From Yuukianura sp. NJ FZ-2021 (lineage: Eukaryota), in the NCBI GenBank assembly GCA_046563655.1, contig CM102284.1, positions 1,550,001 through 1,614,000 of the forward strand: a stretch of DNA of 64,000 nt. The letters run 5' to 3'. Positions 15,835 through 58,650 of the stretch are shown one piece after another. The notes under the pieces are model-generated. The model saw nothing but the letters and a program-made list of their open reading frames with translations. It made no database searches and was not told the DNA's origin. Position numbers and translations under genes: made by a program. Numbering within the stretch: position 1 is the stretch's first letter; each line of letters begins with the position of its first letter.

Positions 15835-15913
15835 AACTTACACGTCCACTTGCGGCTAATAAAAGATAACTTAATATTTTAACTTCATTTTAATCTAAAA
15901 ATTTAATTTACAT

Positions 15914-28814: not shown

Positions 28815-29629
28815 TGTGGAAAAAAATACTTTTGGTTTTTTAAATTGCAAAATTTTGTGATCAAATGAAAACTCAATTGTGTGCTTGGGATTTTAATGGG
28901 CATCGAATTTGATATTTATAGTCTGTTAATTAATGTGGCGGTCAAATTCTTTACAATTTCTCCTCTTTTGTTCAAAATTTTCTCTTTTGTTTTCAAAATT
29001 ACCAAAAAGTCAAAGTTAACGATGTGCATGTACTTTTCTTAAATAAAATTTAAATAGGTTAGGTAATTTAACCTAGAAAAAAGCTCTATTTTTGTTACGA
29101 TAATGAGCACACTCACTTTGTGTGCAAAAAAACGTTCCTCTTTGTGTATACCTATTAATTTTCATAAATTTGACTACCTTGTTGAAAAAGTATGAGTAAG
29201 CATCACCTGTTCATTTTTTTTCAAACCTGGATCCTTTAGTATATTTACTAAATTAAAACATTGAATTGATGTACTGACTAAATTTAATTGACAAAGTTTA
29301 GCCTTGGAACTGCTTTTTGTGGCTATTTGACCACATGTGTTAAGTTTTGATTAAATTCTCATGACTGAAATTTTTTTGAAACCAAGATACGTTATTGTGC
29401 TAACTTCGTATCACTTCTTTTTACAAGTGTTTGTTAAATATTTCTTGTAGCTTTTAAGAGGCTCTTGAGAAGTAAAAGATTAGATTGGAATTCAAGGTCA
29501 ATATTTTTGTAATAAGAATGACGGCACGTGATGTATGACAAATTTGAAAAACAAAGTTAGTACAATTTAGTCCATTGCAAGTTTAGTCGTATGAAAGTAT
29601 TTTAAGTGAAAGATATTATTGTCACAGCC

Positions 29630-31363
29630 ATGGCTCCAAGTGTAAGCCCCTACATCTCTGAAATTACTACCAAAGTTCAAAAAATTTTAGTTGAAGAATT
29701 AAAATTTGAAAATGTGGAAAACGTTAGTTTAAAGTTTCCAGAAGAACTAAAAGGAGAACACTTTGCAACGGAAACTGTCTACGTACAAGTCAAATTCAAT
29801 GGCGGGGAAACTCAAAATTTGTTTCTCAAAATTCCGTCAGACAACCAAGCTCACCAAAAACTAATGAGAGAAATCAGGGTCATGGAGAAAGAAAGTACAT
29901 TCTATAATGAATTTTTGCCTGCTGCACAAAAGTTTTGTGCGGAAAGAGGGTAAAATGCTTGTTTGAAATTTTTAGTCAACATGTTCGTAAAGACTTTTAC
30001 AAAATTTTTCAAAAGTATATCTAACAAACTCCATTTTCGTTTGCAATTTTAAAATATTTAGATGTGGAAACATCTTGGACTTTTTCCCGCCATGCTTGTA
30101 CGCTGACAACGACATGGTACTTTTGAAAAACCTTGTGTTGGACGACGGATACGAAATGTTGTCAAAGTTGGAACAGCAAGACTATGAATCAGCAAAGTAA
30201 TAAGCATTTTATAGTCTTAAGTATATAATTTATGACTCTAATTAGTAATTATTATAATTAGTTATAAATGTGGTATTTACGGCAATATAAATCGCACAAA
30301 TTGCTACATACACAAAAACGTTTTCATATTTTGTTAAAAATTTTTTAGGTTGGTGCTAATGAATTTGGCAAAGTTTCATGCCGTATCGTACACAATGATC
30401 CAAGAATCAAATTTGGATGAATTTAAACAACGTTGGGCGGTGACTGCTGTTGATTGTCTGACGAAACACGAAATGATGGAATCACTTTTCAGCAATGGTC
30501 CGAAATTCTGTTTGGATATATTGAAAGTAATATCTAAAAATATAAAATATATAAATATATACATATACATACTACATATTTGAAGATACTTTGGTCAGAT
30601 ATGTATTGTAATATGTAATGGCATAATTTCAAATTGGTGTTATAGGTGAACCCCATAGATGGAAGTGCAGAAGCCGTGCGTTATTTGAGCGAATACACTA
30701 AAACTGTTACCGGTAAACTTGGAAAACTAGCTGAAGATTCTCTGCAAGCAAACTTGGTCACCCTTGGACACGGAGACTGTTGGAACAACAACATGCTTTT
30801 CAAAAAAGACTCAAAAACCGGACAAATTTTGAAAAACGTTTTGGTGGATCTTCAGGTGAAATTTCGGTTTCAATACATTACAGTCATTTCAAAATTCGAT
30901 TCCAAATTTTAGTCATCAAAGACTTTCGTTGTTTACCTTTCAGTGCACCAAACTAGGTTCCCCAGTGTTAGACATTGCAAATTTTTTATTCAGCAGTGTA
31001 AAATCCGGAGTTAGAAGGGAGTCTCACACCAAATTCACTCACCATTACTTTGCAACGTTTCAAAAAACGTTAGAATTGTTGCAATGTCCATGTACAATTG
31101 GATTTGAGCAGTTTATGGATGACTACCGCAAGTTCTGTGAACATGGATTTATGATGGGAATGCTGTGTCTTACTGCCATAGGAGCCATGGAGGGAATGGA
31201 TTTTGATGTAATGGGAACAGAAAATGAAGCTGACAGTGCAAACGTCTTTAACCGCCGAATTGAAAAGTGGATTGCAGCTAATCCCGAAAAAGGAAAAGAA
31301 ATTGCAGTTGAAACTGTTTTGCTCGTAGAGGAATACAAACGCCTAACTGCACAAACGACTTGA
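29630..31363 (+). CDS. Ecdysteroid-kinase-like (EcKL/CHK, DUF227) protein, copy 1, 5 exons
   Basis: Motifs GEHFAT, LFLKIP, EKESTFYNEFLP, LAKFHAVSY, Brenner motif HGDCWNNNMLFK, LVDLQ and GSPVLDIANFLFSS. GT-AG introns. Confidence 0.9.
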
Positions 31364-31925
31364 CAAGTAGACATTTTTTGACAAAATTTGACTTTTACTC
31401 TGCAATTGTGCATAATACTAATTTTTGGATACAGATGGAGATTAAGTAGAAATCAAGGTCAAGGTCACACTTTAAAGTTAGAAATAAATATACCTGTTGT
31501 AAATCCAAATCTGAAAATACTAACGGGAAAGAAATTGCAATTGAAATTGTTTTACCTGTAGAAGAATTTAAAAATTTGTTAGCAGATGAACTTCGAAAAG
31601 ATTAAATTTTTGAAAGGACTGCAGTTTTTGTTTCTTTGTTGTATTTTTTGATCGGGTGGTTACCTTTTTTTCTGCCAACGCATGACCTTCGGAAAGACAT
31701 CGATTAGATTGAGGGGTTACATGCAATGTAACCCAACCTCAAGTCAACCAGAACTTCCTCTGCCGCCGTTTCAACACACAACATCAGTCGGTCTCCCACC
31801 TTTCAACTAGCTTTCAGAACTCAAGGTTAAGCACTACAAAAAAATACTTGATATAAAGTGTTTGAAATGAATTAGTACGGTTCCGTTTGTTCAGTGGAGT
31901 GAAGCTTATTTTATTTATAAGCATC

Positions 31926-33496
31926 ATGGTTATTGAATCCCAAATTTTAAAACAAATTACTGAAATTTTAGTCGAGAAATTAAAATTTGAGAAAGTAGAG
32001 AATGTTAGTGTAAGAGTTCCGCAGGAACTTAAGGGAGAGCACTTCGCGACACAGGCTGTGTATGTTCAAATCCACTTCACTGGCGGGAAAATTCAAAATT
32101 TGTTTCTCAAAATCCCTTCGGACAATGAAAGTCATCGTAAGGTCATGAGTGAACTCAAGGTCATGGAGAAGGAATGCGCATTCTACAATGAATTTTTACC
32201 TGCAGCGCAACAGTTTTGCTCTGAAAGAGGGTATAACAGTGGAACCTTAACGTTTTGAATTTTTTTTTAAATTTTGAAAGTTTCATTCTTAAAATTTTAA
32301 ACTACTTAGGTGTGAGAACATCCTGGATTTTTTGGCGCCTTGTTTGTATGCTGATGACATCATGATACTTTTAAAGAATCTTGTTTTGGACGAAGGATTT
32401 GAAATGCTACCGAAATCAGAAGGACAAAGCGTTCAAGCAGTAAAGTAATTTTTAAAAAAAAATGAAAAAATTTCTAAAATATAGTTTGCATTTTGATTAA
32501 AATTTTAAGTCTCGCGCTATCAAGTTTGGCTAAACTCCATGCCGTATCGTACGCAATGATCCAGGAATTGAATTTGGAAAACTTCAAGCACCGTTACGCG
32601 CTGACCACTGTTGACCTCATGACAGAACACGATTTTATAAACTCCATTAATAAGGGTGCGCCGCAGTTCTGTCTGGATGTATTAAAAGTAATAAGTATAT
32701 AATTGTAAATATTACAGTTTAAGTTAATTAATTAAATTAATTAATTAATTACACTTACATTGTTTGTGGCAGACTAGCCCTGTTGACGGCAGCGAAGAAG
32801 CTGTACGTTATTTGACAGAATACAGCAAAACAGTGGGTGGTAAATTGCTAGCTGAAAAGTCTTTACAAACCAACCTGGTTACACTCACGCACGGAGATTT
32901 TTGGAACAACAACATGCTGTTCAAAAAAGATCCACAAAATGGACAACTTTTGAAAAACGTTTTGGTTGATTTTCAGGTAACTTCGAAAGTTTGATTTTAA
33001 AGTTTCCTTCAAAATTTTAATTTTATTTAAACAAAAACAATTTCATTCTGCTTTTCGTTTTTTCACAGGCAACGAAATTGGCATCTACCGTAATAGACAT
33101 TACAAATTTTTTGTAAAAAAAAATTTTTTGTTCAGCAGTGTAAAACCCAGTGTTCGACGAGAGTTTCATTCAAAATTTCTTAAGAATTATTTTGCTCAAT
33201 TTCACAAAACGTTGGAAATTTTGAACTGTTCATGTACAATTCCATTTGAAGAGTTTATGAAGGACTATCGTATGTGCTGTGAACATGGATTCTTAGTAGC
33301 TCTAGTATTTTTGACTGCAACAGGAGCTTTGGATGGCATGTATGAGGATGTGGCAGCGAAAGAAGACCATGAAGGTGGCTCCGTTTTTATTCACAGAGTT
33401 CAGAAGTGGATTCATGAAAATCCAGAAAAGGGAAGAGAAGTTGCAACTGAAATTGTTCTACTTGTAGAAGAGTACAAAAGTTTAGGTGCAACATGA
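31926..33496 (+). pseudogene. EcKL kinase copy 2, disrupted by a 17-bp insertion (33114-33130) giving TAA plus a frameshift in the last exon
   Basis: Same exon structure as copy 1, with HGDFWNNNMLFK. The last exon from 33069 reads ATKLASTVIDITNFL*, and homology resumes in another frame at FSSVKPSVRRE. Confidence 0.75.
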
Positions 33497-34310: not shown

Positions 34311-35500
34311 AAAATCAAACTACTATTCAAAATCCGAACAAAATAAAAAATCTTCAACAGTTCAAAAAATTATCATTGCAATGTAAACTGCAAAAAAAAA
34401 GTGAACGTTGGACTTACCTCTTCAACAGAGTAAGAATAATTGTTTCACAACTGGAATCCGAAGAATAGATTCACTGATGTGTCACTGTACGGAGACTGTC
34501 AAAGTTATTAATTAATGAACCAACTGCCGGAATCGGTGACTAAACCAAATGTTAATGTGACTAGTACAGAGGGGCATGCAGACGGGCGGACAAGAACTAA
34601 AACATACAGTAGGAAGCTACCTTTGCTACTTTATAATAATGAACTATTATTGAAATTGGTTGGTTTATGTAGTTCACATAGTAAAACCATAACGTATGGT
34701 CTCACGAGTATGATAAACAAATTTCCCTGACATTGACGTAGTTCCAAACATTTATTCAAAGGAGGAGACAAGAATCTTGCAAGAAAAAAACCGCAACCTA
34801 CGTGAATTAGTAGACTTCAAGGTTGTTTCTTACGTATATCAATTAATTTTCCCATTATTTTTGTATCAGTCTGGTTCTCCTTCGTCCCATCTTGATACGA
34901 ACAAAAAAAAACAAGTTAATTATTATTAATGAATTCAATAATTTACCCAATTTGATCATGAGCGCGTTATGTCTAAACTTAAGTCGACGTAATTTTAAAA
35001 AGTATAAAATCAGTCTGAAATACGGATTCATAACCACTAACCAAGTCTGTGGGATTCATCCAAAAATGGGTTCGCTATTTTAAACTTTGAGAACAAAGGA
35101 CAATAAGGTTAAGATATTTCTTAGTGTTGGAAAAAGCTAGGCATTGGATTACAAATTCTTAAGCTTGTGAACTTTTCAACGAACGAAAAAGGAAAAAATA
35201 GCGTGGGTTTGGTACAAAGTTGTTAAGGGGTCGGGTCCCTTGAGAAAAAAAAGACGCCTAAGGGACCATTAGAGTTCACCGCTCTCATTAAACCCTTTTG
35301 CAGGACTGAACATAGAAACTCACATATCATTGCACAAACCTTATAAAAACAAATTTGTTTCTAAAGTAAAAGTTATTAAAAAGTAGTTTAAAGTTTAACG
35401 CTTTGAAACAAATTCTTTTAACCAATTAAGTTTTAAATCGTGTATAGTAGAGTTTATTACACCTCACTAGTACAGAATACAAGTTTAAAGTTTCAACAAC

Positions 35501-38500
35501 ATGGCAGGTAACTTTTTCAAATTTACTTCTATTTAAACTATTTGAAAATACGTTCGTTTGTTTGAAATCGTTTGCATTTTTCAAAATCAAATTTGTTTGC
35601 AGATCGCGAGTGTTGGGTGACATCAGCGACGGATGATAACGAAGCTTGGAAAGCTTTGGTGCTGGCAAGGTCAATTCGAAATTCGATGACAACGAGGACA
35701 ATCATAGTTGCAATTTCTGAACATGTTTCAAATGAAATGAGGTGAGGTTGAGTTTTCTTAAGTTTTAGAATTAATTAATTTCCAGCCAAACTTGAGTAAT
35801 GAGACAGTGTTAAAAAAGTACTTTTTATATAATTTTTTTTAATTTAAAAATTTTTAGGCTATATAATACTTTTTTTTATAACAATTGAATCTCAGAACGC
35901 TGTTACGCCGAGTATTTGAAAACGTTCTGCTCTACGAGTCCAGTGAGGTAGGAAACAAGCGACATCGGTTACTTTGGCTTTGGAACATCCAATATTGGAC
36001 CAAGTGTGTCTATGTCCACCCTATGTCTTACGTAAGGCAAAGCTAGGCCTTAAGCCTTAAGTGAACTTTTTTTTAGTGCATTTAGCTATTAAAACCGGTA
36101 ATATAACTGCAGTTTGCCCTTTGTACATATTTCATGTGCGTACAGATGCTCGAAAACGCGGACGAACTGTTTTCGTATCCACCATTCTCAACGAGAGTAG
36201 AATGTACTGCGGACGGTGGAATGAAGATTTCATCGAAGATCATAATTTTCAAACCAAATCTGCAGGATTTTGACCAACTTGTAGAACTGAGCGAGTCAAA
36301 TTTACAGGGTAAGACTCAGCTGTGTGCCAGGTCGTAAGGGCTACTACAATCAGGGCTACTGCAAAAGGAGCTAATTCAACATGAGCTACTTTCAGTAATG
36401 GCATGTGTTTAGCGTGGACAATTTTCCTTTCCTCCATTATTTTGCATTTACATTTTCAAAATTTTGAAAACTTTACTTCCAGCCCACTTACGAATGGGTT
36501 TGAAAAAGCTTTGCTACAAAAGCATAAGAGTGGAAAGATAATATTGTTTTGTGCAGCTATAGGCTTTGTGTACTTGTAGCCACTATCGCATGAGCTCCTT
36601 AGCAGTAGACTTGATTTTTTGTAGCCCTATTTGAGTAGCCGTTACTGGAGTAGCGGTTTTTGATGGTTCCATGTATTTTGGCCAAAAAGAGAAATAATCA
36701 AAGAGGAAAAGGTCAGAAAAAACGGCCAAAAGGAAAAAAAAGCTCTGTCATTTCACTTTTGGCCAATATTTTTTGGCCATTTCACCTGCTACGCTTTTTG
36801 ATTTAGCCCATATGACAAATTGAACCACTCAACTGCTTTTAGCATGAATAAATACGTTGTTGTGTTTGTTTTTGGTCACAGGCACTTTTGAGGATATTTT
36901 GGAAAGTAAATTTTCTGACGCACTGAGAGATCTTAAACATCAAGTTGTAGCGTCACATGCATCAAAGCTTTTTAAAATGGAAAACGGGACATGGTAAGTT
37001 TTAGTAAATACAAAACAGAGAAAAAGGGTTTAAACAGGGAGTTTGGGTTAAAAATTATTTATGGAATTCATAGAATTTAGGAAGTCCCGCCTCTTTCCAC
37101 CCCTGCCCCTGCAACAAATTTTGTTACGGTTACCGTAATTAGGTTAGGTTAGGTGCAAGTCAAATCTGTGAAGTCACTTTCCAAACGTTTGTCGTTTATG
37201 GAACTTATGAGTCGTGTTTCGAAAATTAAAATTCTGTAAATCCCAATCAAAGGATTTTAGTTTTTCTTAGACTACAAGGGAAATAAGCCTAATTGTTTTG
37301 AAACCAAAAATATCCCTAACCAAGGGAAAAAAGTGGCGCTTAAGCCAGCTTCACACCGAACGCAAAAAAGTTTAGATGATTGTTTGCGTTAAAATTAGCG
37401 GTTGGTGTGTGAACTGGGCTTTACATTGTGATGAAAATCGCTTTCGTCCTTGCAAGTCCCTGCAAAAATGGTTTCAAAAATTTTGTTGAAATCAAGCCTT
37501 ATTTCCCCTCTAGGCTAGACAAAAACGCAGAAAATTACCTTGACAGGTCTCTGATCCCAATAGTTTGAAAAGTGACGTCACTACCCGCCATAAATTGTAT
37601 ACTTCCCACAAATTCTATAAATTATAACGCAAACTCCCTCACATAAACTATGAAAATCAGGTATGGCAGCGTATCGCCCAAAAGTGCGTATGAGGAAGTG
37701 ATGCAAAACTGGATGACTACATTTGAAACAGAAGTTATTCCACAAGTTCTTCAACTGAAAGTAAACAATGTTTGCTTTTAAAGAGTTCAGTCTGCTTCTT
37801 CGAATAATTGTTAACATATGTTAAGCAATGAGCTTTTGTTTTTAGAATGACCGCACGAGAGAGCAGCTTTTGCATTCCGCAAGGAAACACTACTTCACAC
37901 CAACTGTAAATGGACATTCTAAAGTATCATATACTGAAACGAAAGACGCGCAAGATTTGGAAATGGGAATTGCAGTCGTGGGCATGAGTTGCAGATTTCC
38001 AGAAGTAAACGATGCAGATGAACTTTGGGAATTGCTCATGAGTGGCCGTGATCCGATTGGGCCGTTCCCACCCGATCGACCACGCCCACTAAATGACGAC
38101 ACGGAAAATTTTAAGGCGGGATTTTTGAAATGCGCAGTAGATGAATTTGACGCTAATTTTTTTGGAATTAGTCCTCGTGAGGCGCCGTTTATAGATCCTC
38201 AGCAACGTTTTCTCCTGGAAGTTGTCTGGGAGTGTCTGGAAAACGCAGCTATAAATCCAGTGGACTTACGCGGAACAAACACTGGTGTTTTCGTTGGGAT
38301 TACAGGACAAGATTACTTAAGTTTGTTTCCGAAGTACGGACTAGATGGAATTGATTACAATCATGTCTACGTGGGAAATGCCTTTAGTGCTACAGCAGCT
38401 CGCGTTTCACATTGCCTTGGACTTCGTGGACCCAATATTGCTGTCGAGTAAAGCAATTTCGTAAATATCTAATTGAACGTCAAACTAAAGAAGTATTTGA

Positions 38501-41500
38501 TTTAGGTCGGGCTGTTCAAGCAGTGCAAGTGCCGTGCATCTTGCATGTCAAAGCCTACAAAAAGGCGAATCAGAACTGGCAATTGTAGCGGGGGTGAACT
38601 TAATCCTTGATTGTTTAAGCCCTCTCGGGGGAGGAAGACTGTTGGACTCACTTGTGTTTGCAAAGGATTTCAAATGCAAGACCTTCGATGAAAGGTATTA
38701 AGTCGCACTTTTTAATTTTATATTTTGTGTATTTAAGATAGCTACTTGATGCATCGACTCTGTCTCTCTGTGTGGCTGTCTGACGGGCCGTTGGCAGTTA
38801 TTATCTCAATAACTAGTATAATATGTAATCTGTAAAGTAATACCTAGTGTTTACTATTCAATATCATCTCGGTGGGTCATCTTTTTCCGGATCAACCGTA
38901 AAGATCAGCCTGTTTTATCATGGGTAATATGAAAAATGGAATGTACAAAAGTTGTTTATCTTGCAAACAATTTATTAGTACACGCGACGTTAAGTGGCCG
39001 CTTTCCTAGTCAAAGGTCAACATTCTTTTTTGCATCATTTTTAACGTCTACTCATTATAGTCTACGATTATTTACCATTGTAAGCTGTTAGGACGCCAGT
39101 GCATCTTTCCCTACTTTTTTACACTCGGGTTTATCATTATTTGACTTTGTGTGTATTTTCAGTGCTGATGGTTACGTGCGAGCAGAAGGTTGTGCAGCAA
39201 TTGTGCTTCGACGGTTGGAAGGCACCACTCGTGCAAACGATAACGTCGTCGGTATTATCCGGGGAACTGCGTTAAATAATAATGGAGCCGAGGAAAGCTT
39301 TGGAGCTCCAAATTGTACTGCATTAGAACTAGCATTTCGAGAAGCATTGAACGGTGCAGGAGTTAAGCCTAGCAGCGTCAGCTTAGTCGAAACGCATGGA
39401 ACAGGAACCGCAGTTGGAGGTAAGTACTTCTGTGAACTTTACAAATTAAGGCAACCCAAATTTAAAATTAAATTTCTTGATTATTTTAGGTTACTAACAC
39501 AATTTTTGCCACTTATTGACTTGATTTTGTAGATCCCATAGAAATGAGTGCAGTGGAACATGTTTATTCTGAAGGCAGATCCGCTACTAACCCACTTCTT
39601 GTGACTTCGGTAAAAACAAACATAGGGCATTCCGAAGCCTGTGCTGGTTTAGCGGGACTAATCAAAGTTCTCCTCTGCTTCAAACACAAACAAGTTCCAC
39701 CGAATCGACATTTTCAAAAACTCAATCCCAAAATCAACCTACAAAAAATTCCGGCACTCATCCCCATAGAAACCACTGAATGGAAAGCCAAAACCCGAGT
39801 AGCCGCGGTTTGTTCGTACGGCATGAGTGGAACAAACGTCCACATAATCCTGCAAGAGCCACCGCTCAACAAAAATTTTACCGAATTCAAAGACCAGGCA
39901 CAAATGATTGGGATTTCTGCAAAATCAGAGGCGGCATTGGAAGCTTTGTGTCAAAAATACATTTCATATTTTGAAAAAAATCCGAAACTTGCGTTGGGCG
40001 ACATCGCATTAACTCTGAACACAGGAAGAGCAAATTTTCCTCACCGGATTGCCCTTGTAGCAAAAAACACGAAACAACTTATTGAAAAATTGAAGCAGAA
40101 AGCGTACATCAAAGGGAAAACGCTCGTGCAAAAACCGAAGCTGATTTTTCTGTTCACAGGTCAAGGGTCACAGTATTTTGGAATGGCCAAAACCATATAT
40201 CAACATTCTCCAGTGTTCCGAACAGCCCTTGAGCAATGTGAAACTCTGTTTAAGAAGCACTTGACATGTTCATTGAAGGAAGTTGTGTGGGGAGATGCTG
40301 CTTTATTGGAAAAAACCATTTACTGCCAGCCTGCAATATTTTCAGTTCAGTTTGCACTGGTTCAGTTATGGCACTCTTTTGGAATTTACCCTGACATCGT
40401 TCTTGGGCACAGCGTAGGTGAATTCTGCGCATCAGTTTGCGCAGGCGTCTTGTCATTGGAAGATGGAATGAAACTTGTTGCCGGCAGAAGCAAACTTTTG
40501 AATAGTATTGAAGGCGGGAAAATGATGGTAGTAAAAACGTCTCCGGAAAACCTGCGCAGCTTGATTCCAAAATTTCTCGAATCGAATTTTAATTCTTACA
40601 TTGACATTGCCGCTGAGAATTCGGATGAAGAAGTCGTCGTTTCAGGGACAGATACAAATATGTTAGAATTTGCAAGTTTTTGCGAGCAGCATGGACTGAA
40701 AGTCCAAATGATCTTGGCCTCTCATGCGTTTCACTCTCGTCAAATGGAATCAATATTACCAGACTACGAAATGGAAACAGCCACAATTCGACAGCAAAAA
40801 CTGAAATGTCGATACATATCTGGAACGTTAGCGCGGGAATTGAAACAAGAAGAATTTAATTCCTGTTATTGGTCGCAACACTTACGAAATACTGTGACAT
40901 TCCGTGACGCCATTGATGTCGCTTCTAACCTATTCGCCGAGGACAGAAAAGTTTTTGTCGAAATCGGAACCAAACCGACTCTGTTAAGCATGGCAATGGC
41001 AAATCTGCCCAACTCTACAAATGACGTATTTTGCCCTTCATTGCGCCCAAACGAAGATGATTTGGCTTCCGTCTTGAACTCTTTGTCGAAAATGTACGTG
41101 GCTGGAGTTGAGGTTTCATGGAAAAATTGGTGTTGTGACGAAAACACCAAATTGAATCTTCCAACATATCCATTTCAACGTCAAAAATTTTGGTTTCAAC
41201 GGGACCAGATTGACTTTGTAGAACTTCCACGTCAACTTGGTTCACACCCAACGCTAGGACGGCGTCTACCAACCGGCGGTTTGGAAATCATTTTTGATAA
41301 AATTTTATCTCCGAAGATACTACCATACGCCCAAGATTACTGCATTGCAGAAAGCGTAATTTTACTCGGAGCTGTGTACTGCGAAACCATTTTGGCCGCT
41401 GGTCGTCACGTACTGCAAAACAAAGACGCTCCTGTCCAATTCTCTGTGCAGAATTTTGTAATCGAGGCTCAACTGGAGTTGGACAAATCTGTCCACATGC

Positions 41501-44500
41501 AAACAATTGCTAAAGCAATTGAAGGCGGTGACAAGCTTGATGTCGCAATTCACAAACAGTGTCGTGAGGATTGTGACACTTGGAAGCGACTTGCAACGGG
41601 AATATTTACTCTAAATTGTTCGCAGCCCAATATCTCATGCCTTGACGTAAACTCGTTGCAGCAAAAGCTAGACGTAGTTGAGTCAATGACGAAGGTTTAC
41701 GATCAACTAGCTGCAGTCGGATACCAATTTGGACACACATTTAGGTCTATTTCTTCTGCCTGGGTTGGAGAACATACGCTTTTAGCAAGCATTGAAATTC
41801 CTCAAGATTGTGGCACTTACGTGTGTCATCCAATTGTTCTAGATGCGATGATTCAAACTGTTATTATCTATTCAACATTGAAAACACTACAAGGCAGTGA
41901 TAAACTTCAATTACTAACTCAAGTCAAAAAGTTCACTTGGTACTCAGAAGAATTGTCCCCTAAGGTTTTTGCTTACTTGACAAATTTTCAAGGATCGAAT
42001 CACGTGACCTTGGTGAATAACTTTGGGCGAACACTTGCATTGATGGAAGGAGTCGAATTTATTCAAATGTCCATTTCAACGTTTCTGGAAAAACTAAACC
42101 CGAAACCGCCTTCACTTAAATCCGGATTACATTTCGAAGAAGTATGGCGACCAAGAGATGGAGTCACACGTAATAGAGTTGACGTGCAAACTTTTAAAAT
42201 CAAGTCTTCCTGTTTTACAAAATCCACTCTCCAGTCCATTTCACAGATTGAAGACATAACATTGCAGAGCATTCAAATAATTGACAAATTATTTGTACTG
42301 TTCCTGCTTAAGGGAATCAGAGAATCTGCATGGCCGTGGCCAAAAGTGGGCCAAAAACTACTCATCTCTGATTGGGGCAATATCGCAACGGATCTGCAAG
42401 TTGTGAAATCCGGCAAAGTAATGGAAATACTCGAAGTGTTTTTATTTTTAAAAGAACTTGAGTACGGAAAGTACCAAGTGTTGCAAGAGCTGCCATCTTT
42501 GGAAGTACTGGAGAAACAAATTTTTGATGGATTTGAGCAGCATGCAAAACTGAACAATGGTAAAGAGACTGTGATTGAGCAATTTACACGACGGTGTGGC
42601 AAACATCTATCAAGTGTGCTACAGGGAAAACTAACGCCGGTTTCCTTCCTCTTTCCTGAAGATTCGTTGGAAGTTGGCGCTTTCAAATTTTATTCAGACG
42701 GTGAGCATCGAGAGTTAACAATCAATTAACTTAAATATTGCCATATTTAAACTTAAATTTGTAGAAACCTTTTTGGAACCTTTTTAGCTTATTTATGTCA
42801 GATATTTTAAAGTTCTTGAAACGGCTTTTTTGGATCTTTCTTTTCCGGCCTTTGCTAACAACTTGGAACGACATTACCGATATTTAATCTATCTTAAGAG
42901 ATCTATGCCTCGTGGTCTCTGTAGTTCATCATATGCTTTTCAGTTTAACTGGAAACGGAGAAATTCCGGGTCAAGGGTCAATATCAAATACTATTTCAAC
43001 TGAAATCGAGGAAAAGACAATACAAAATTTGCGGTTAGATTTCCGTTTCTGGGGTCATGAGACTTTTTTTAAGTGTTTTAATCAAAATTTTTGACTAAAA
43101 TAATTTTTTTTTCACTTTAATCATGTTTCAAACGTTGTTGGAACGTTGGAAGCAAAAAATATTTTTGACCGCAAGGTCCTATATTTTTAAGATTTTGGAC
43201 TCAAAAATTTTCCAAAAATTTTTCGAAAAAGTGCAGAAAGTAAAGGGGGCACCCCTGACAAGGTTACGTTAGCTTAAGTCTAAGATGTCTAAGATGACCT
43301 TTATAAAAGTTTTTTAGAATCATGAAGGGAGTTTGTCCTACGGAGTAGGACACCACAACCACTCCCCGAGGTCAAAGGTCAATTCAAGTAAAAATTTGGG
43401 AAATGTCCAGATACGTTTGAAACACGATAAAAAAAAAGTAAAAAAATAACAAACAAAAATTTCGGGTATTTTTGACCAAAAACTTGGAAAAAGGTTTCAT
43501 GACCCCAGAAAGAAAAATTTAACCCAAAAGTTGTGCTTCTCCTTGAGACAAACAACTTTATTTAGATGTCCTTGACCTTTTTAACCTAGTGCTTCTAATG
43601 TATGAATCGTAGTAGGTAATTTGGTCAAAAGTGAAAAGATCAAACATAAAAACGTCAAAATTGAAAAGGTCAAAAAGTGAAAATGTCAAAGTGAAATGGT
43701 CAAAGTATAAAAAGATCACAGAGTGAAAAGGTCAAAAAGTGAAAAGATCAAAATTGATGTAAATTCTAGTTTGAGTCTAAAGTCTAAATTGGTTTCATAT
43801 TTTTTTCTAATCCTCCCGCGCCGAAGGCGCGGCGTTAGGTTATTCGTTTGCATTATTCCCTTATGCAAATTGCGAAGGTTTATTGGCTTAGATAAAGCCA
43901 GTTTTAGGAATTCGAATTATTGACTGAAGTTGGTTTTGTCGGAGAAGCTTTTTTGAAAGATGGGCTTAACTTTAAGCGATTGTTTACATGGAAATGGAAA
44001 TAATTAACACCTTAAGGACGTGTGTTATGCTTCTAATAAACAGTAATCGTTAAATTTAGTAACCACGATAACCGAGCTTGTTTAGTCAGTAAAAGATGCA
44101 GACATCGACAAAAAGAAACGCCCTCATGGGTGGTGAAAAAGGATCAGTGCAAGTATGATCAAAAAAAGTATGTACTTTCAAACAAACAAAATACTGACTC
44201 AAAGTTCAGTTGCCGTCGTCTGGGTTTTGTCAACAACTTTTTTGAGAATGCGACATTGAAATTGAAAAATGGTCTGGATCAGCGTAGGAAGGTCGTACAA
44301 TGACCCACAATATATCAAACTTTAGGAAAAGACTTGATCTAGTATCATGACCGAGGAAATTACAAAATTTTAGTTCTATCTATGTAAAAATAGAGGTGGA
44401 ATGTTTGGGTCAATTTTTTTCACAGTTAGAAGTAACATTTTGTAATTTCCTCGGTCATGATACTAGATCAAGTCTTTTCCTAAAGTTTGATATATTGTGG

Positions 44501-47500
44501 GTCATTGTACGACCTTCCTACGCTGATCCACACCATTTTTCATTTCATGAGTTACAGTCGCATTTTGACCCCTAGTTTCCAGGGTATTCGCGAGCCTTAA
44601 ACTTAAGCTAGAATTTCCATCATTTTGACATTTTGATATTTTCACATTTTCATTTTGCGATCTTTTTATACTTTGGCAATTTCACTTTTGACCTTTTCCC
44701 TTTTGACGTTTTCATGTTTGATCTTTTCATTTTTGACCAAATTTTATGGAATCGTATGAATGCCAAATTGTCATATCGTCATCTACATTTTGCTACTTAC
44801 ATTCGGTGTTTATAACGGTTTATTTTAAATTCGTAGGTGAAGGATTCAAAGAAAATAGCATGCTGACAACATCTGTGCTTGTGGATTGTACTTGCGGTTC
44901 GTCTCGGCCGAATGGAGTTTTGAGAATTTTGGAAGTTGGCGCTGGTTCTGGCATTTCGTGCGGTTTGCTCCTTGACAAATTTGCTCAACTCAATGTGTCG
45001 GTCAAGTACACTTTAACCGACATTTCAACATACTTCCTAGACGAAGCCAAAAAGAAATTTACACAAGGCGTGAGCTTTGCCCAGTTTAATATTGAACAAG
45101 ACCCTCTGAGTCAGGGGTTTGCTCCAGAAGAATTTGATGTCATCATTGCTATCAATGTCGTCCATGCAACTGCCGATATTTCGCAAACTCTGAGGAATTT
45201 AAACCTGGTACTGCGACAAGGAGGTATGCTCTTACTGGGAGAAATGTTTGTTGATTTCACTTTCATCAACTTGTCATTTGGATTTCTGGACGGATGGTGG
45301 AGGTCAACGGATGCCCGAATCGGGTCACCACTGCTAACGCAAGATCAATGGAAAAGTGCTTTTGAAACAAATGGATTTGCACAAACTCATACGTTTTCAT
45401 GTTTTGACGGTACTTCTGGAGTTATAGCAGGAATCAAAGGCGTTGGACCATTTGAAATCAATCCACCGCCAATTGCTTATACAAGGGAAATACCTTGGCT
45501 AGTAGAAACCGACGGAACAATGTTGGCGTCAACAATTACAACAAAATTGACAGCCTTTGGGCGAAGTCCGATACAGTATGACAGAAAACAAAGTGTTCAA
45601 AATGGACTGGAGGGGGTACTTTTTTTCGTGACTGATGAGGTTAAAACTCAAGGAGCAATGCAAGAAGTTCTCGGTTTGGTGAAAAAACTAGACTCTGCAT
45701 ATCAAATGCACAAATTGAAACCAAAATTAATTTTTGTAACACGCGGAGTCAACTATTTGTCAGACGCTGGTCCAGGAAATCCAAATGCCGCTACGATAAC
45801 ATCTTTCATTCGTTCTTTTGCAAACGAACATACTGATTTTAAGATGATGCTCATTGACCTTGACCAAGATGAGATCAACTTTGAAAGAGAAGCAGAAGAG
45901 ATATTTGCCCTGTTGTGGTCACAAGAAAACGAAATGTTTCAAGCAATTCGACAAGATCATGTTTTTGTGCAAAGATTGGTCTGTGGTGACAATGTGAAAC
46001 ACACACTTTCATTTCCGAATTCAACTCGATTTTGTATAATGAAACCCGTTACTAAAAATTTGGACGACTTGGACATTTCCTTGGCTCCAAACATTCCACC
46101 AGTTGAAGATGAAGTGGAAGTAGCCGTGAGAGCAACGGGACTAAACTTCAAAGATCTCGTTCTCATTCTTCAACCAGACGGTTTTCTAGATCCATACAAC
46201 ACTCAGCCAGGTTTTGAAGTAGCTGGAGTAGTTTCGGCAACTGGACCATCTTGTACAAAATTTAAAATTGGCGACCCCGTTTATGGAGTTGTGCGCGGAA
46301 ATGGGCTGGGCTCACACGTGACTGTTTCTTCTCGCTATTTGATCCGAAAACCAGACCAAATTACGTTTACTTCTGCCGCATCCGTTCCAACTGCATTCAT
46401 TACCGCTTTGTACGGTCTCAAATATCTTGCTAATCTGAGTGACAAAGAGCGAGTTCTTATTCATACTGCCACTGGAGGTGTTGGACTCGCAGCGATTCAA
46501 GTTGCCAAGCATCTTAATGCTGAAGTCTTCGCAACTGCAGGCAGCCGAAGAGAGAAAGCTTACCTTAAATCTATTGGAGTTCAGTACGTGTACTCCTCGA
46601 AAACAACTGATTTTGGACACGAAATCTTGAAAGACACAAACGGACAAGGAGTTGACGTTGTCCTTAACTCACTCACTGCTCCCGGTTTTAAAGAAGCTTC
46701 TCTCCAAGCGTGTGCTCAAAATGGACGATTTATTGAAATTGGAAAAGTTAATACTTGGCGTGAGGTAGAAGTAAAGCGATTACGTTCCGATGTGAAATAT
46801 TATATTCCCATGTTAGGGTGGACTACTGAAGAGGGGAAGGAAAACATGTCTCAAATCATGGGGGAAATTGGGAACGCGTTGGAAACTGGCCAATTTAAAA
46901 CTCTTCCGCATCAAGCATTCTCCGTCGATAGAATTCGGGAAGCTTACTTATTTTTCCAACAAGCTAAGCATATTGGGAAAATTGTAATAACAATTCCAGA
47001 AGCAAAAGTTAGCCCATCAGGGAAAATCGAATTCGAGCAGCAACTTTTTAATCATGAAAGTACATATCTTATCACTGGTGGATTAGGTGGAATCGGCATA
47101 GAAGTTGCCAAGTGGATGAAACAAAGGGGGGCCACCAACCTTGTGCTTGTTGGACGCAACAAACCATCCATAGCAGCCGAAGATGTTTTGAAGATGCTGA
47201 ACAAAGGTGGATGCCGAACTTTGGCGGTTCAAGCAAACGTGGGAATTTACGAAGAAGTTAAATCTCTGCTTAAATCTTTAAATGATTTGAAATTCCCACC
47301 ACTTCGAGGAATTATGCATGCGGCAGGAGTGCTCTCTGACGGAGCGATTGTGAACCAGTCTTGGGAAAAGTTTGAAAAAGTTTTCCAACCAAAAGTTAAC
47401 GGGACTTGGAACTTGCACAATTTAACGCTAGGTTACGACATGGAATTCTTCATTTTGTTTTCCAGCATGGTCTCAAATTTTGGATCACCAGGCCTGAGCA

Positions 47501-48692
47501 ACCATGCTGCTGCAAATCGGTTTCTGGATTCGTTTGCTCACCACCGCCACTCACTTGGCCTTCCTGCCTGCAGCATAAATTTTGGGCCATGGTCAGAGGT
47601 ACGTCAAAAATTATTAACGAGCGAAAGAAGTTCGCTACTTTATGCTTTCCCCTCAGTCCGTCGGTCTGTCTGTCTTTCGGTCTATCCTGCCTATCTGTTG
47701 GTTTATCAGTCTGTCCGTCGATCTGTCTTATCTGTCTGTCTGTCCGTCGATTTATTGTGGCTGTCTGCCTATCTGTCCGTTGATCTATGTTGTCTGTCTG
47801 TCCGTCTGCCAATCTGCCCTTCTGTTGGTTTATCAATCTGTCCGTCTACCGGTGTGTCTGTCTGTACGTCTGCCGATCTGCCTGTCCATCGATTCATCGT
47901 GTCAGTCTGCCTGTCTCTCTGGCTATCTGTAGAACATTTTAACTGTGAAATGACTGTACAAAAGGTCAAGGTCGATCGCTTTCTTTTATGAAAATCGGAA
48001 CACTACTTCTACAAAAGTCGTCCATTCATTTCGCTACTTGCATATGGCGTTTCCAACGGTTTATTCCGTTTTATATTTGTGGTTAGAATGTAATGCCTGC
48101 TTTTCAACTACAGACTAAAATTTTGAATTTTATTTTGTAGGTTGGAGTTGCGCTAGTAAGCGACCTTGTTCGAGAACGAACTGGCATTCGTGCCTTGTCT
48201 GTCAAACAAGGTTTGGCAGCTCTTAAAACGGCCATGGAAGAACACAAGCTTCAATTTACTGTATTGAACGTTTCGGATTGGGCAAAGGTGAAGAGATCTG
48301 TATACCTGGGAAACTACTTGCATGAAATTGACTCTGACGACTCTGTTTCAAAGAAACCAAGTAGTGGAAAAAAACTTATCCGAAAAGAAATTGAGGAAGC
48401 AAAAGAACAAATCCAAAGACGAAAAATAATTGAAGAATTTGTTCATTCAGTTTTGAAAGAAACGATTCACGTGGGCGCTTACGAAGAATTGGATCCAGAC
48501 AAACAATTTTCAGAGTTTGGCGTCGACTCCCTGATGACGATTGAGATGCGCAATCGCCTTCAAATCATGTTCAAAAACAGTCAACTAACTGTCAGTTCTA
48601 TACAAGAAAGTCGCACAATTCGAAAACTTACGAACCATTTGGAAAATTTGATGCACTCTGATGTTTCACTAGAACAAAATGAACGAGACTAA
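35501..48692 (+). CDS. Single-module type I polyketide synthase with an N-terminal degenerate glycogenin/GT8-like domain: GT8*-KS-AT-DH*-cMT-ER-KR*-ACP (~2728 aa; exons 35501-35507, 35603-35741, 35896-36031, 36146-36308, 36882-36993, 37661-37760, 37846-38447, 38506-38694, 39163-39419, 39533-42700, 44837-47598, 48141-48692)
   Basis: KS: IAVVGMSCRFP, DPQQRFLLE, ESGCSSS, HGTGT, KTNIGH. AT: GQGSQ, GHSVG, HAFHS. DH-like: HPTLG, HPIVLDAMIQ. cMT: LEVGAGSG, NVVHAT. ER: IHTATGGVG. KR: TGGLGGIG. ACP: GVDSLM. All listed junctions are GT-AG and the summed length (8187 nt) is a multiple of 3. The PKS identity is secure; the 36993-37661 junction is the least certain. Confidence 0.85.
37343..37420. mobile_element. 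78-bp Tourist/Harbinger-like MITE (TTA TSD) nested in a ~250-bp inverted-repeat element (~37268-37517)
   Basis: TTA|AGCCAGCTTCACAC ... GTGTGAACTGGGCT|TTA; outer imperfect TIR TAGACTACAAGGGAAATAAG / CTTATTTCCCCTCTAGGCTA. Confidence 0.6.
43030..43525. mobile_element. Decayed inverted-repeat (MITE-like) element in a PKS intron
   Basis: GGTTAGATTTCCGTTTCTGGGGTCATGAGAC (~43033) pairs with GTTTCATGACCCCAGAAAGAAAAATTTAACC (~43494-43524); true ends not resolved. Confidence 0.55.
43618..44743. mobile_element. MITE-like element with repeat-rich TIRs in a PKS intron, with nested inserts
   Basis: ATTTGGTCAAAAGTGAAAAGATCAAACATAAAAACGTCAAAA (from 43619) is the near reverse complement of 44701-44742. The arms consist of repeated GAAAAG(G/A)TCAAA units. 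Confidence 0.7.
44266..44540. repeat. Near-perfect ~103-bp inverted repeat with a ~68-bp spacer
   Basis: 44266-44368 (AAAAATGGTCTGGATCAGCGTAGGAAGG...GAGGAAATTACAAAAT) is the reverse complement of 44437-44540 with about 1 mismatch. Confidence 0.9.
47611..48045. mobile_element. (CTGT/CCGT)n microsatellite-containing insertion, Helentron/DINE-like, in the last PKS intron
   Basis: Degenerate GTCY tetramer run at 47655-47930, bracketed by TTCGCTACTT motifs at ~47631 and ~48030. Family assignment is inference. Confidence 0.5.
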
Positions 48693-50389: not shown

Positions 50390-50816
50390 AGTTATAAATT
50401 TTCTACATCTTTTTGCAACGTGAATTACCTATACTTTGAAAAAAGTCGATATTTGTTAACCTAAGTAAAATTTGAGCTGAATGTCGAAAAACGTATACGA
50501 AGAACCGACGACGGAAATAACTAAACTGGAATTGTTGGTTTTGAGCAATTTTTAGTTTTCCTGTTTTTACATTTAAAAACGTATTAACCTACAGTTACGT
50601 TTAGTTTTCGTTCAAGCTAATGTTACGTTTTACTTTCGCTCTACGAGTATTTGTGAAGTTCTCTTTTTAAGGTGTGGAGCTGACAAGGGAACTAGATTAG
50701 ATAAAAAAGGAAGTTGGAGTCCACAGCACACTTTAAAACAAGCTGCATAAACCAAACTTGAGAAACAGAAGTACAAACTCTTTTGCTGTGGTGTGAAATT
50801 TTAAGTGAAAACGAGC

Positions 50817-52444
50817 ATGGCTATGGATTCAGGTTTGGGCTCGGTTGAAGCCAAAATTTCAAACGAAATTGGTAAAATTTTGAGAGAGAAATTGAAATTT
50901 GAGAATGTGGAAAATGTTAGTGTGAAGTTTCCAGAAGAAACAAGTTTCCACTTTGCAACTGAAACTGTTTACGTTCAGGTCAAATTCAATGGCAGGGAAA
51001 CTCAAAATTTATTTCTTAAAATTCCGTCAGATAACGAAAGTCATCAAAAAATTATGAGAGAAATCAAAGTAATGGAGAAGGAATGTGCGTTCTACAGTAA
51101 ATTTTTGCCTGCTGCTCAAAAGTTTTGTACAGAAAGAGGGTAAAGTGATGGCTTGAAATTTTTCAACCTTTTCTAAAGCATTTTTGTTTTAAATTTTGTA
51201 AAATTTTGATTTTTAAATTTTGAAATATTTAGATGTGGAAACATCTTGGACTTCTTCCCGCCTTGCTTGTACGCTGACAACGACATGGTTCTTTTGAAAA
51301 ACCTTGTACTAGATGAAGGATTTGAAATGTTACCAAAGTTGGAACAGCAAGACTTTGAATCAGCAGAGTATTAAAAATTTATAGTCTTATTTACATAATT
51401 TCAGAAATTTAACAATGTCCCAAATTTATCCATTTATCTATTTTTTTATATTTTGCTAAAAATTTCTAGAATGGTGTTATCAAATTTGGCAAAATTTCAC
51501 GCCGTGTCATACGCAATGATTCAAGAGGCAACTCTGGATGAGTTTAAACAACGTTGGAGCATGACTGTTACTGACTTTTTGTCAAAACATGAATTGATGG
51601 ACTCGTTTTTTACTAACGGCCCGCAATTTTGTTTAGATATATTGAAAGTAATTTATAAAAATATACAAATATATAATTTTACATATATAATAACAAACTG
51701 ATCATCATAGGCTAATCCAATACATGAAAGTGCAGAAGCTGTGCGGTACTTGACCGAATACAGCAAAACTGTTACCGGTAAAATTGGAAAAATCGCTGAA
51801 AATTCTCTGCAAGCCAACTTGGTCAGCATTGGACACGGAGACTGTTGGAACAACAACATGCTTTTCAAAAAAGATCCAAAAAGTGGCAAACTTTTGAAAA
51901 ACGTGTTAGTTGATCTGCAGGTAATTCCAAATTTACTGTTTATTTTTATATCTCAAAATCAAAAACAAAATTTTTCCAAGCAAAAAAAAACGCCATTTGT
52001 TTTCATATAATTTTTTTAAAACAGTGTACCACTTTGGCGTCGCCCGTATTGGACATTACAACTTTTTTGTTCAGCAGTGTGAAAGCAAGCGTGCGGAGAG
52101 AGTTTCATACAAAATTCCTGCAACAATATTTTGCAAATTTTCAAGAAACTTTGAAAACATTGAACTGTTCAAGTACTGTTGGATTCGAGGAGTTTATGGC
52201 AGACTACCGGAGATTCTGCGAACATGGATTTCTGACGGGACTCATGTGTTTGACTGCAATGGAAGCTATGGAAGGTGCAGACGTTGAGGACATGACAAAA
52301 ACAGACGATGAAGGTGTTTTCGAATTTAACCGCCGAATTGAAAAGTGGATTGCAGCTAATCCGGAAAAAGGCGCAGAAATTGCTGTTGAAATAGTGCTAC
52401 TTGTGAACGAATATAGAAACTTAGTTACAAATGGAATTAAATAA
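50817..52444 (+). CDS. EcKL/CHK kinase-like protein, copy 3, 5 exons
   Basis: Motifs HFATETVYVQ, LAKFHAVSY, HGDCWNNNMLFK, LVDLQ and ASPVLDITTFLFSS; same intron positions as copy 1. Confidence 0.88.
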
Positions 52445-53024
52445 ATTTTGAAGAAGTACGGTAGTAATAACTTTGTTAAATAAATTTGAAACGTCTGTTA
52501 CGTTTGTTGTATCTACTAGATTTAATATTTTGTATGCCTGATTTAAAAAAGTTAACAACGCAAATACAATTCCTTGCAAAAGTGTATCAACTAAGATGAG
52601 CTTAGCTTCATTATATAATTAGCTTCAATATAATAGAAACCGATGGAAATAGTGTTTGACATAATTTGGGCCATTTGGAACAGTAGGACTGTCGGTTTAA
52701 AAAGTATTTTTGTTTTTCTTAACTTTTATTTTCAGTTTCAGTTGTTGATTCCTATCGCATATCATATGTTCATGGATACTCCCTTTTTAGGCACAGTTCC
52801 TAGAAAACTTTTCCGATTCATTTTTGAAAATCAAATAATCAACTTTCAAATCTTCTCCTTACTTCAGCAGATTCAGAAACGCAACGAATATATCGTTTTC
52901 CAAAATTCGAGTTTTTTAAACAATGCATTATAAAAGCAGAAAAGCTGCCCATAATGACAAAAATCCTGCCTTTGACAGAATTCAGAAAATATTAAAAAAA
53001 AAGTTGTTACAAAAAGGCTTTATA

Positions 53025-55190: not shown

Positions 55191-55829
55191 GCATTTAGTT
55201 ACCCTAGTTGCACTGCGTGTTCATGGAAAAATGAGTACACGTTACACTTGTAAATTTCGAGCGACTTTGATTCTTTACTTTTAGCCACTAGTGACTAATT
55301 TTTTGATTACTTAATGAAGTGTAATTTTCTTGCACATACTTTGGCTAGTGAACGTACTTTATGTGCATTAAAATCTAATTTAACTATAAAGAAATAAACT
55401 ACTTATTGGGTTTAACTTTAATTCCTAATCTGCCATAAAATAATATTTTTTACCCACTTCACGTAAGACACAAAACAGTCGTCTTTATCTTTAAAGAAAA
55501 ACTTTTTTTAACTGTATCACAAAATCTGCCCTACTATCATATCACTTTTTTTAAACTTTCAAAATAAAAGTTTATGACAAACACAGAAGAGTATCTTCAC
55601 TTTTTTTTATTTTTCAAGTTTTCAACACGAAAATTTATGTTAAACCAAAGATGAGTATCTTCGTTTTTCTTTAGTTTTCTTAACAAAATTACTTCAAGCA
55701 ATTCTTATACCGCTCTTTTTTTCGTTTTCAGATTAGTCTTACATTTACTAAAACTCTTCAAACGTGTGTAGCAAGTTTATGACATATTCTGTAAACCAAA
55801 ATTGCAAAAAAAAAAATTGTTTAGGAAAA

Positions 55830-57956: not shown

Positions 57957-58650
57957 AAATGCGGAAACCAAAATGCACAAAATTGTACGAATGTTAAAAC
58001 GAAATTTAACTAGAACTTGAAAAGGCAATTGCAATAGATGTTGTCGCGTTTCCGTTACATTAAAATTATAATTAAATAAAGGTTTAATTTAGTATATTAA
58101 GTTTATACTTAAAAACTTGACATACGCTTGCATGTTGAAATGGCGTGTAAACTATTTAGGAAAAGGGCAAAGTTTGTTGAATGATAAGACAACTTACGAG
58201 AACACAATTTTAAAAACTTCAATTTTTCTGGGGAAACGATTATATCTTTAGCCTTAACGTGATAAAATCTATATCATTTCGAGGTAATGGCAGGAATAAC
58301 ATGATTTCCTTGTTCTGAATAAGTAATTTCATTTCCCCCGTTTTATTTTAGTTTTTGTTTTGTATTATATCGCTAATCGCGACGTATCTACGTCTATTCA
58401 TATTAAATGTGTTCCTGCTTTTGTTTGTTTTCTTTTGTTTTAAACTTTTGTTTTCAAATTTTGAAATGCTGGTGTCTTAGTTAATAACATGCATTCCAAT
58501 AACATTTACTTCAGTCAGAAAATTACACAACAGAAACAGAGAAGTGAAACGTGAAAATTTTCTTTACCGCACTAAACTTTGTATGCCACTGAACTAAATA
58601 CAGTCCTACAACGACTACTTATATCGTTAAAACACGGATATTCTTTGGCA

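Follow-up and report, generated by a model that had tools for sequence, protein, structure and literature searches.

A putative pseudo-glycosyltransferase domain of glycogenin origin at the N-terminus of a springtail polyketide synthase

Background

Glycogenins (GYG1 and GYG2), which belong to glycosyltransferase family 8 (GT8; Pfam PF01501), are dimeric proteins whose C-terminal tail binds glycogen synthase. Bacterial and fungal highly reducing type I polyketide synthases (PKSs) carry ketosynthase (KS), acyltransferase (AT), dehydratase (DH), methyltransferase (MT), enoylreductase (ER), ketoreductase (KR) and acyl carrier protein (ACP) domains in this order. Bacterial PKS modules have docking or dimerising elements, or loading domains, at the KS N-terminus, and the N-terminal additions of the highly reducing enzymes are loading or docking domains of other folds. 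We know of no bacterial or fungal highly reducing PKS with a GT8/glycogenin-type N-terminal domain. Here we describe a locus in which both families probably meet within one protein. The DNA analysed, referred to as the window, is a stretch of 64,000 nt from Yuukianura sp. NJ FZ-2021 (GCA_046563655.1, contig CM102284.1, positions 1,550,001 to 1,614,000, forward strand). It most likely contains a single gene for a reducing, bacterial-type PKS whose first six coding exons encode a dead glycogenin-derived GT8 domain of ~220 residues, hereafter called the module.

The PKSs of the springtail F. candida have been described as horizontally acquired (PMC5490193, PMC10764717). The PKS part of the window gene has the same domain set and order as the highly reducing enzymes of bacteria and fungi. 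Its module is homologous to glycogenin-1/2 over the whole catalytic core, and the position of the start codon as well as the positions and phases of the first two introns are the same as in human GYG1. In contrast to glycogenin, the module lacks the DxD motif, both catalytic Asp residues, the metal-binding His and the acceptor Tyr. Additionally, ~12-15 residues are deleted before the DxD strand, the C-terminal tail is absent, a PKS is fused behind it, and its similarity to the family lies below Pfam detection. The closest relative found, protein P0132 on the metagenome contig L001, has the same exon-intron plan as the window gene, including the intron at the junction of module and PKS. PKS models of the springtails F. 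candida and O. dallaii, like the window gene, begin with a dead GT8-like module and continue into PKS domains. They are paralogues of the window gene, not orthologues; in F. candida the PKS part is ~30-44% identical to that of the window, and the module is 32% identical over 100 residues.

Gene structure of the module and the PKS

The exons were joined by script from the window sequence, which was read over 35001-39000 and later extended to the full gene, and the splicing of the gene model was deduced by comparison with homologues. In the predicted structure, six small exons within 35501-37760 lead into the KS exon at 37846-38447, and the joined coding sequence is in frame and free of stops. 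Introns 1 to 6 are all of the GT-AG type, with lengths of 95, 154, 114, 573, 667 and 85 nt. The complete model comprises 12 exons and 11 GT-AG introns and has 8187 coding nt, 2728 amino acids (aa) and one terminal stop; the module accounts for 219 aa upstream of the KS. The features of the gene are as follows.

35501-35507 (+): exon 1, 7 coding nt (the start codon and 4 nt more), phase 1 at its end
35603-35741 (+): exon 2, N-terminal strand-helix-strand of the GT8-like domain; its end splits an Arg codon in phase 2
35896-36031 (+): exon 3, with the DxD-equivalent position at its end; 47% identical to its L001 counterpart
36017-36025 (+): HPM codons, at the columns of DAD (the DxD metal/UDP-sugar motif) in true glycogenins
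36146-36308 (+): exon 4, middle of the GT8-like domain, ending in phase 1
36882-36993 (+): exon 5, equivalent of the glycogenin catalytic Asp..Asp-Gln stretch, ending in phase 2; 16% identical to the L001 exon
37661-37760 (+): exon 6, C-terminal helix of the GT8-like domain (script alignment with true glycogenins), ending in phase 0
37761-37845 (+): intron 6, 85 nt, phase 0, GT-AG, at the junction of module and PKS
37846-38447 (+): exon 7 (KS exon), an open linker of 40 codons and then the KS start; Pfam ketoacyl-synt at 3.8e-43
37963-37965 (+): in-frame ATG directly 5' of the KS core, from which a module-less PKS might alternatively start
38506-38694 (+): exon 8, KS active-site Cys (CSSS)
39163-39419 (+): exon 9, where the KS N-terminal part ends and the KS C-terminal part begins (HGTGT)
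39533-42700 (+): exon 10, KS C-terminal part, linker, AT (GHSVG, HAFH) and DH, by Pfam and motifs
44837-47598 (+): exon 11, methyltransferase, ER and KR (Pfam); its acceptor was picked among three in-frame candidates
48141-48692 (+): exon 12, KR end, ACP (DSL; Pfam PP-binding) and the stop codon at 48690-48692

The KS reading frame opens exactly at the acceptor of intron 6, and with intron 6 retained the frame stops 7 codons past 37760. An original prediction, made by a model from the sequence of this stretch alone, had proposed six small exons separated by GT-AG introns and a phase-0 intron at 37761-37845 leading into the KS exon. Our analysis recovered the six exons at the same positions, with a joined translation equal to the peptides that had been quoted, and found no stop across the junction. 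The proposed exon boundaries were right overall, except at the end of exon 2, which lies in phase 2 at 35741, and at the end of the KS exon, which lies at 38447. No copies of the large introns were found elsewhere within the window.

Homology of the module to glycogenin

Homology was tested exon by exon and by script comparisons of the joined module. As a single sequence, exon 2 matched residues 5-48 of glycogenin-1 and glycogenin-2 in the PDB (E = 0.023). When it was combined with its L001 counterpart in a two-sequence profile (A1), all 19 PDB matches were glycogenins, with a best E of 9.7e-6. Exon 4 had no glycogenin match in the PDB as a single sequence and was matched only as a two-sequence profile (A3), for which 19 of the 20 PDB matches were glycogenins (residues 108-155; best E 0.055). 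The PDB matches of exons 2 and 4 are colinear on glycogenin. No glycogenin match in the PDB was obtained with exon 3, alone or as a profile, nor with exon 6, including its profile.

A search of the exon-2 profile against 1.84 billion protein representatives returned 176 proteins at E<=1e-3. Thirty proteins among the best 150 were scanned with Pfam, namely 24 non-repeat proteins of at least 200 residues, three shorter ones (181-192 residues) and three multi-stretch repeat proteins. The PF01501 cut-off was reached by 13 of these 30, and some of the PF01501-positive matches (snail, tardigrade and aphelid) carry the name glycogenin in their source records.

The joined module scored 81 bits against the true glycogenin P0261 (BLASTP). 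Against a profile of 13 true glycogenins it scored 76.3 bits, compared with 11.0 bits for the best of 2000 shuffles. In addition, the fold of P0241, a database homologue of 221 aa that is 32% identical to the window module, was predicted from a 30-row alignment with a pLDDT of 84 and a pTM of 0.84. The best PDB matches of this model were glycogenins (TM 0.82-0.86, E ~1e-21), ranking above Skp1 galactosyltransferase and LgtC. P0241 is thus predicted to adopt a glycogenin-type GT-A fold and may be taken as a proxy for the window module.

Pfam searches gave a different picture. No single module exon had any Pfam match at E<=10, and PF01501 was not matched at E<=0.01 in P0290, P0291 or P0241. The original prediction had named Glyco_transf_8 and ketoacyl-synt as the families to look for; ketoacyl-synt was indeed found on exon 7, whereas Glyco_transf_8 was matched by none of the single exons. 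Its proposal of glycogenin homology is nevertheless upheld by the bit scores of the joined module, the colinear PDB matches of exons 2 and 4 and the modelled fold of P0241. On these comparisons of sequence, the module is a true homologue of glycogenin (GT8), and the relationship is statistically solid.

A counterpart of the fusion in a metagenome contig

P0132 was the closest PKS relative found in the large protein search, with a PKS 43-50% identical to that of the window. Its open frame starts and stops at exon boundaries of the window gene, and the coincidence of its ends with the window exon ends suggests shared introns. On L001, the contig of P0132, homologues of the module exons lie upstream of the KS, with strand and order unchanged. 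In the L001 model, 8 exons are separated by 7 GT-AG introns, all of them short (62-92 nt), and the coding sequence is in frame from the start codon to the KS.

Several details of the gene structure are common to L001 and the window. Both have a first coding exon of 7 nt, a phase-2 intron in the codon after a conserved Met and a phase-0 intron ahead of the 'ML' found after the DxD position. The intron phases of L001 match those of all six window introns. Specifically, the codons interrupted by introns 1-3 correspond, introns 4 and 6 lie within one or two codons of those of the window, and intron 5 is common in phase only; the alignment is weak around introns 4 and 5, and their relative positions are uncertain by a few codons. 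The junction intron of L001 (63 nt, phase 0) lies within one codon of the 85-nt intron 6 of the window.

L001 differs from the window by one more intron, by ~14-16 more residues near the His-equivalent region and by reading DPT at the DxD position. An extra module exon at 1518-1602 of L001 contains a 'YPW' motif that corresponds to the KPW strand of glycogenin, and a search of window intron 5 for a relic of this exon found none. Between the window and L001, identity is 36% in the module (76/210), 19% in the linker (7/37) and 68% in the KS part of exon 7 (107/158), indicating that the module is clearly more constrained than the adjoining linker. Among the four metagenome loci fetched, the 5' end was covered only by L001; L002 and L003 are 3' fragments, and L004 has neither KS nor module matches upstream.

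Fusion in annotated springtail proteins

The module was also found in annotated proteins of two named springtails. In the F. candida protein XP_035716828.1 (P0290), it extends from residues 8-49 onward, and the KS follows at residues 239-487. OXA63741.1, the GenBank model of the same locus, contains the module as well. A second F. candida locus (XP_035709867.1, P0404; OXA62037.1) likewise encodes the module and then a KS, so that the fusion is present in every one of the four F. candida models (two loci, two annotation sets). In the O. dallaii protein CAL8109975.1, a PKS DH domain is joined to the module. The source names of the fused F. candida and O. dallaii models make no mention of the module. 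The original prediction had pointed to Collembola as the group in which a GT8-like domain joined to a PKS might recur, and these proteins agree with that guess. The in-frame fusion that it had postulated for the window is conserved in L001 and in the proteins of both springtails.

Met residues between the module and the KS are distributed unevenly. In XP_035716828.1, the stretch from the module to the KS core contains no Met. A linker Met before the KS core is present in the window (37963), L001 and XP_035709867.1, at differing positions.

Short models consisting of the dead module alone (183-252 aa) were also observed (P0282, P0308, P0339, P0326, P0307 and P0370), two of which are named O. 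dallaii. These short models group with the module of the PKS-linked O. dallaii protein, and they may be stand-alone genes or split models of further PKS genes.

Loss of catalytic residues

The motif columns were read from a script alignment of 14 sequences, comprising 6 true glycogenins and 8 degenerate ones. All 6 true glycogenins have the DAD motif, the Asp..Asp-Gln stretch and the His, and 5 of the 6 have the Tyr. The titles of glycogenin PDB entries name rabbit Asp159 and Asp162 (the two catalytic Asp) as well as rabbit Tyr194 and human Tyr195 (the self-glucosylated Tyr); the His binds the metal in glycogenin. In the window, HPM occupies the DAD columns, Q, F and E stand at the catalytic D, D and Q columns, the His column is a gap, and K replaces the acceptor Tyr. 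The DxD position reads DPT in L001, DCN in F. candida and SAS in O. dallaii, and NSN, KPT, EPA and NSN in the remaining degenerate sequences. The full DxD motif and the His are absent from all 8 degenerate sequences. Because the replacements at DxD (HPM, DPT, DCN and SAS) are not conserved, no substitute catalytic set is visible.

The region around the N-terminal pocket is the best conserved, with 55% identity between the window and L001 and one Asp that is invariant in all 14 aligned sequences. In the alignment, the last helix of the module runs directly into the linker and the KS, and a glycogenin-type C-terminal tail is absent. Judged from its motif columns, the module is a pseudoenzyme that has lost sugar transfer. 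The replacement of DAD by HPM at 36017-36025 and the resulting loss of catalysis had both been put forward in the original prediction, and both were borne out, since the DxD, both catalytic Asp, His and Tyr columns are all changed. Its further suggestion that the domain might target the enzyme to glycogen particles was rejected as unlikely; the acceptor Tyr is gone and no tail follows the core.

Origin of the module

The intron positions of the module were compared with those of human GYG1. A splice variant of this gene, c.143+3G>C in intron 2, causes skipping of exon 2 and yields p.Asp3Glufs*4 (PMC5735306). The described product places the end of exon 1 after c.7 (phase 1, Asp3 codon), and the name of the variant implies that exon 2 ends after c.143, in phase 2 and in codon 48. 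In the window, intron 1 interrupts an Asp codon after coding nt 7 (phase 1), and intron 2 lies in phase 2 in an Arg codon. This Arg, the last residue of exon 2, aligns with Arg48 of native-numbered glycogenin-1 in an ungapped PDB alignment. Both introns that could be compared (introns 1 and 2) are thus common to the window and human GYG1 in codon and phase, which indicates that the module derives from an animal glycogenin gene, as the original prediction had assumed. Moreover, 39 of 116 short open-frame matches of the exon-2 profile end exactly one residue past the profile end. Such stops are the expected product of a phase-2 donor, indicating that the intron at the end of exon 2 is widespread.

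A tree was built from 36 rows, comprising five PKS-linked modules and all fetched matches of at least 180 aa. Twelve proteins were left out, namely the full-length forms of the PKS-linked proteins, three repeat proteins, P0392, P0405, P0376 and P0304. The window module pairs with L001 (98/92). All DAD sequences fall into one group (88/81), together with a few degenerate ones. The PKS-type modules lie outside this group, in two groups of their own (89/77 and 91/78), and the tree did not resolve the relation between these two.

P0354 and P0412 represent a stand-alone glycogenin paralogue of 326 aa, with DPA in place of DAD and a full-length C-terminal tail. Their position among the true glycogenins in the tree indicates an independently degenerate glycogenin.

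The PKS part

Pfam matches place the domains of the window PKS in the order KS, AT, DH, MT, ER, KR and ACP after the GT8-like module, as in a reducing type I PKS. Besides the KS, they include PS-DH/PKS_DH_N, Methyltransf_12, ADH_zinc_N, KR and PP-binding, and DH, MT, ER and KR all lie within one module of the synthase. The motif residues in the script model are CSSS at 423, HGTGT at 561, NIGH at 598, GHSVG at 860 and DSL at 2674. The Cys-His-His triad of the KS, the GHSxG motif of the AT and the DSL motif of the ACP, which characterise type I reducing PKSs, are therefore all present. With these motifs kept, the PKS looks intact.

Among the 120 matches listed for the KS exon, all those named by their source are bacterial PKSs (39-52% identity), and on the same matches the enzyme does not group with the animal FAS-like PKSs (AFPKs). 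Wide protein searches with the PKS parts were dominated by bacterial multi-module PKSs and returned one useful relative, P0132. By its domain content and database matches, the window gene encodes a bacterial-type, highly reducing type I PKS with a single module.

Alternative explanations and possible roles of the module

The gene structure and its conservation make it highly probable that module and PKS are fused in one transcript. For such a single gene, a horizontally acquired PKS would have taken over its promoter, start codon and 5' exons from a duplicated host glycogenin gene. The fusion would be transcribed and translated as a single protein, and the dead GT-A domain would have been retained for some non-catalytic role. 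Several observations weigh against this interpretation. The module is invisible to Pfam, and in the window it is without the ~14-16 residues that L001 has near the equivalent of the metal-binding His. It evolves faster than the catalytic PKS domains, both between the window and L001 (36% versus 68% identity) and between the F. candida paralogues (82% versus 96%). The annotated fusions are gene models, and a common prediction error could underlie all of them. Finally, given the linker Met in the window, L001 and P0404, a shorter, module-less PKS could also be made.

The same Met bears on an alternative that we regard as improbable, in which two adjoining genes, a stand-alone dead glycogenin paralogue ending in intron 6 and a PKS starting from its own ATG at 37963, were merged by gene predictors merely on account of compatible reading frames. 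This ATG is in frame and immediately precedes the KS core, L001 also has a Met nearby, and O. dallaii has stand-alone models of this domain type (214-235 aa). However, only 85 nt (63 nt in L001) separate the coding parts, leaving no room for a 3' end and a promoter, and the donor, the acceptor, phase 0 and the open 40-codon linker are kept in L001 despite 19% linker identity. A start within the linker is also hard to reconcile with XP_035716828.1, whose linker before the KS core is devoid of Met, or with the fusion in every F. candida model at both loci and in both annotation sets. An operon-like or trans-spliced start at 37846 was rejected, as the first ATG past that acceptor is out of frame. 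Slightly more improbable than two genes is that the glycogenin-like exons are translated but functionless, a decaying leftover of exon capture. All catalytic residues have been lost and replaced differently in each lineage, no other folded part of the protein is as poorly conserved as the module, and the window carries a deletion relative to L001, all of which would suit such decay. Yet the frame, the splice sites and the fold-defining positions were kept while the PKS parts are only 30-50% identical, the module is better conserved than its neighbouring linker (36% versus 19%, window versus L001), and the homologue P0241 is predicted to fold confidently. It is very improbable indeed that the domain retains glycosyltransferase activity through other residues, with which the enzyme would glycosylate its own product or itself. 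The good conservation of the N-terminal nucleotide-pocket region (55% between the window and L001), with its Asp invariant in 14 of 14 sequences, would fit retained activity, but the DxD, both catalytic Asp, His and Tyr columns are changed, and the replacements are not conserved among the fused genes.

For the single fused gene, which remains the preferred explanation, three roles of the module were considered. By analogy with the glycogenin dimer and with the elements at the KS N-terminus of bacterial PKS modules, we tentatively favour a folded N-terminal cap that would pair two chains or dock partners at the N-terminal face of the KS dimer. It is possible, with less confidence, that the module binds a nucleotide or another ligand in a metal-free manner through its well-kept N-terminal pocket. 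Slightly more doubtful still is the view that the module survives mainly as an inheritance from exon capture and does little today.

A broader scenario, which we consider unlikely but worth stating, is that the glycogenin exons made the bacterial PKS an animal gene. The PKS would have landed behind a duplicated glycogenin gene and taken over the promoter, start codon and first introns of that gene, and the dead GT-A domain would then have become an obligatory dimerising or nucleotide-sugar-sensing cap, ancestral to much of the springtail PKS expansion. If this were true, the cap would couple polyketide output to the carbohydrate state of the animal.

Novelty and implications

A full-text literature search, which covered few subscription journals and did not extend to supplements, returned no paper linking glycogenin or a GT8 domain to a PKS. 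The original prediction had stated that this architecture was unfamiliar from characterised PKSs, and this was confirmed in so far as no paper describing it was found; the fused models are already public, with the module unannotated. A type I PKS with a host-derived pseudo-glycosyltransferase domain thus appears to be undescribed, even though fused models are present in public protein sets. The module is conserved but invisible to Pfam, which explains why it was left unannotated there.

Springtails carry dozens of horizontally acquired PKS genes, and at least one lineage of these appears to be chimeric, with host-derived glycogenin exons in frame with a bacterial-type megasynthase. The locus offers a testable case of a transferred gene that gained eukaryotic 5' parts and of a pseudoenzyme domain recruited into a PKS. 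In addition, the exon-2 profile provides a sequence marker for tracing the fused gene family.

Other features of the window

The PKS gene is flanked by pieces of ecdysteroid-kinase-like (EcKL, PF02958) genes at 29606-33493 and 50805-52441 (+), of which 29606-29950 was scanned. Together with the PKS, they may form a cluster of small-molecule-modifying genes. Downstream, four intronless ORFs (+) of ~735-756 aa lie in tandem at 52920-55187, 55752-57953, 58576-60828 and 61525-63777, and their N-termini are hydrophobic. The first of the four (52920-55187), the only one scanned, had no Pfam match at E<=0.001.

Within the PKS gene, a short-period repeat in intron 11 (47599-48140) and the adjoining 47400-48000 gives rise to long spurious ORFs on both strands, which are rich in Ser/Val/Cys/Leu and in Thr/Asp/Arg/Gln. 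At the start of the window, there are two genes of the FAD_binding_4/ALO type (sugar-lactone oxidase-like) at 1-1162 (+) and 1724-3497 (-), with 2097-3497 covered by the Pfam scan. Low-complexity ORFs rich in Pro/Gln/Thr occur at 14138-15866 (+) in a GC-richer stretch (0.47), possibly representing a structural protein gene.

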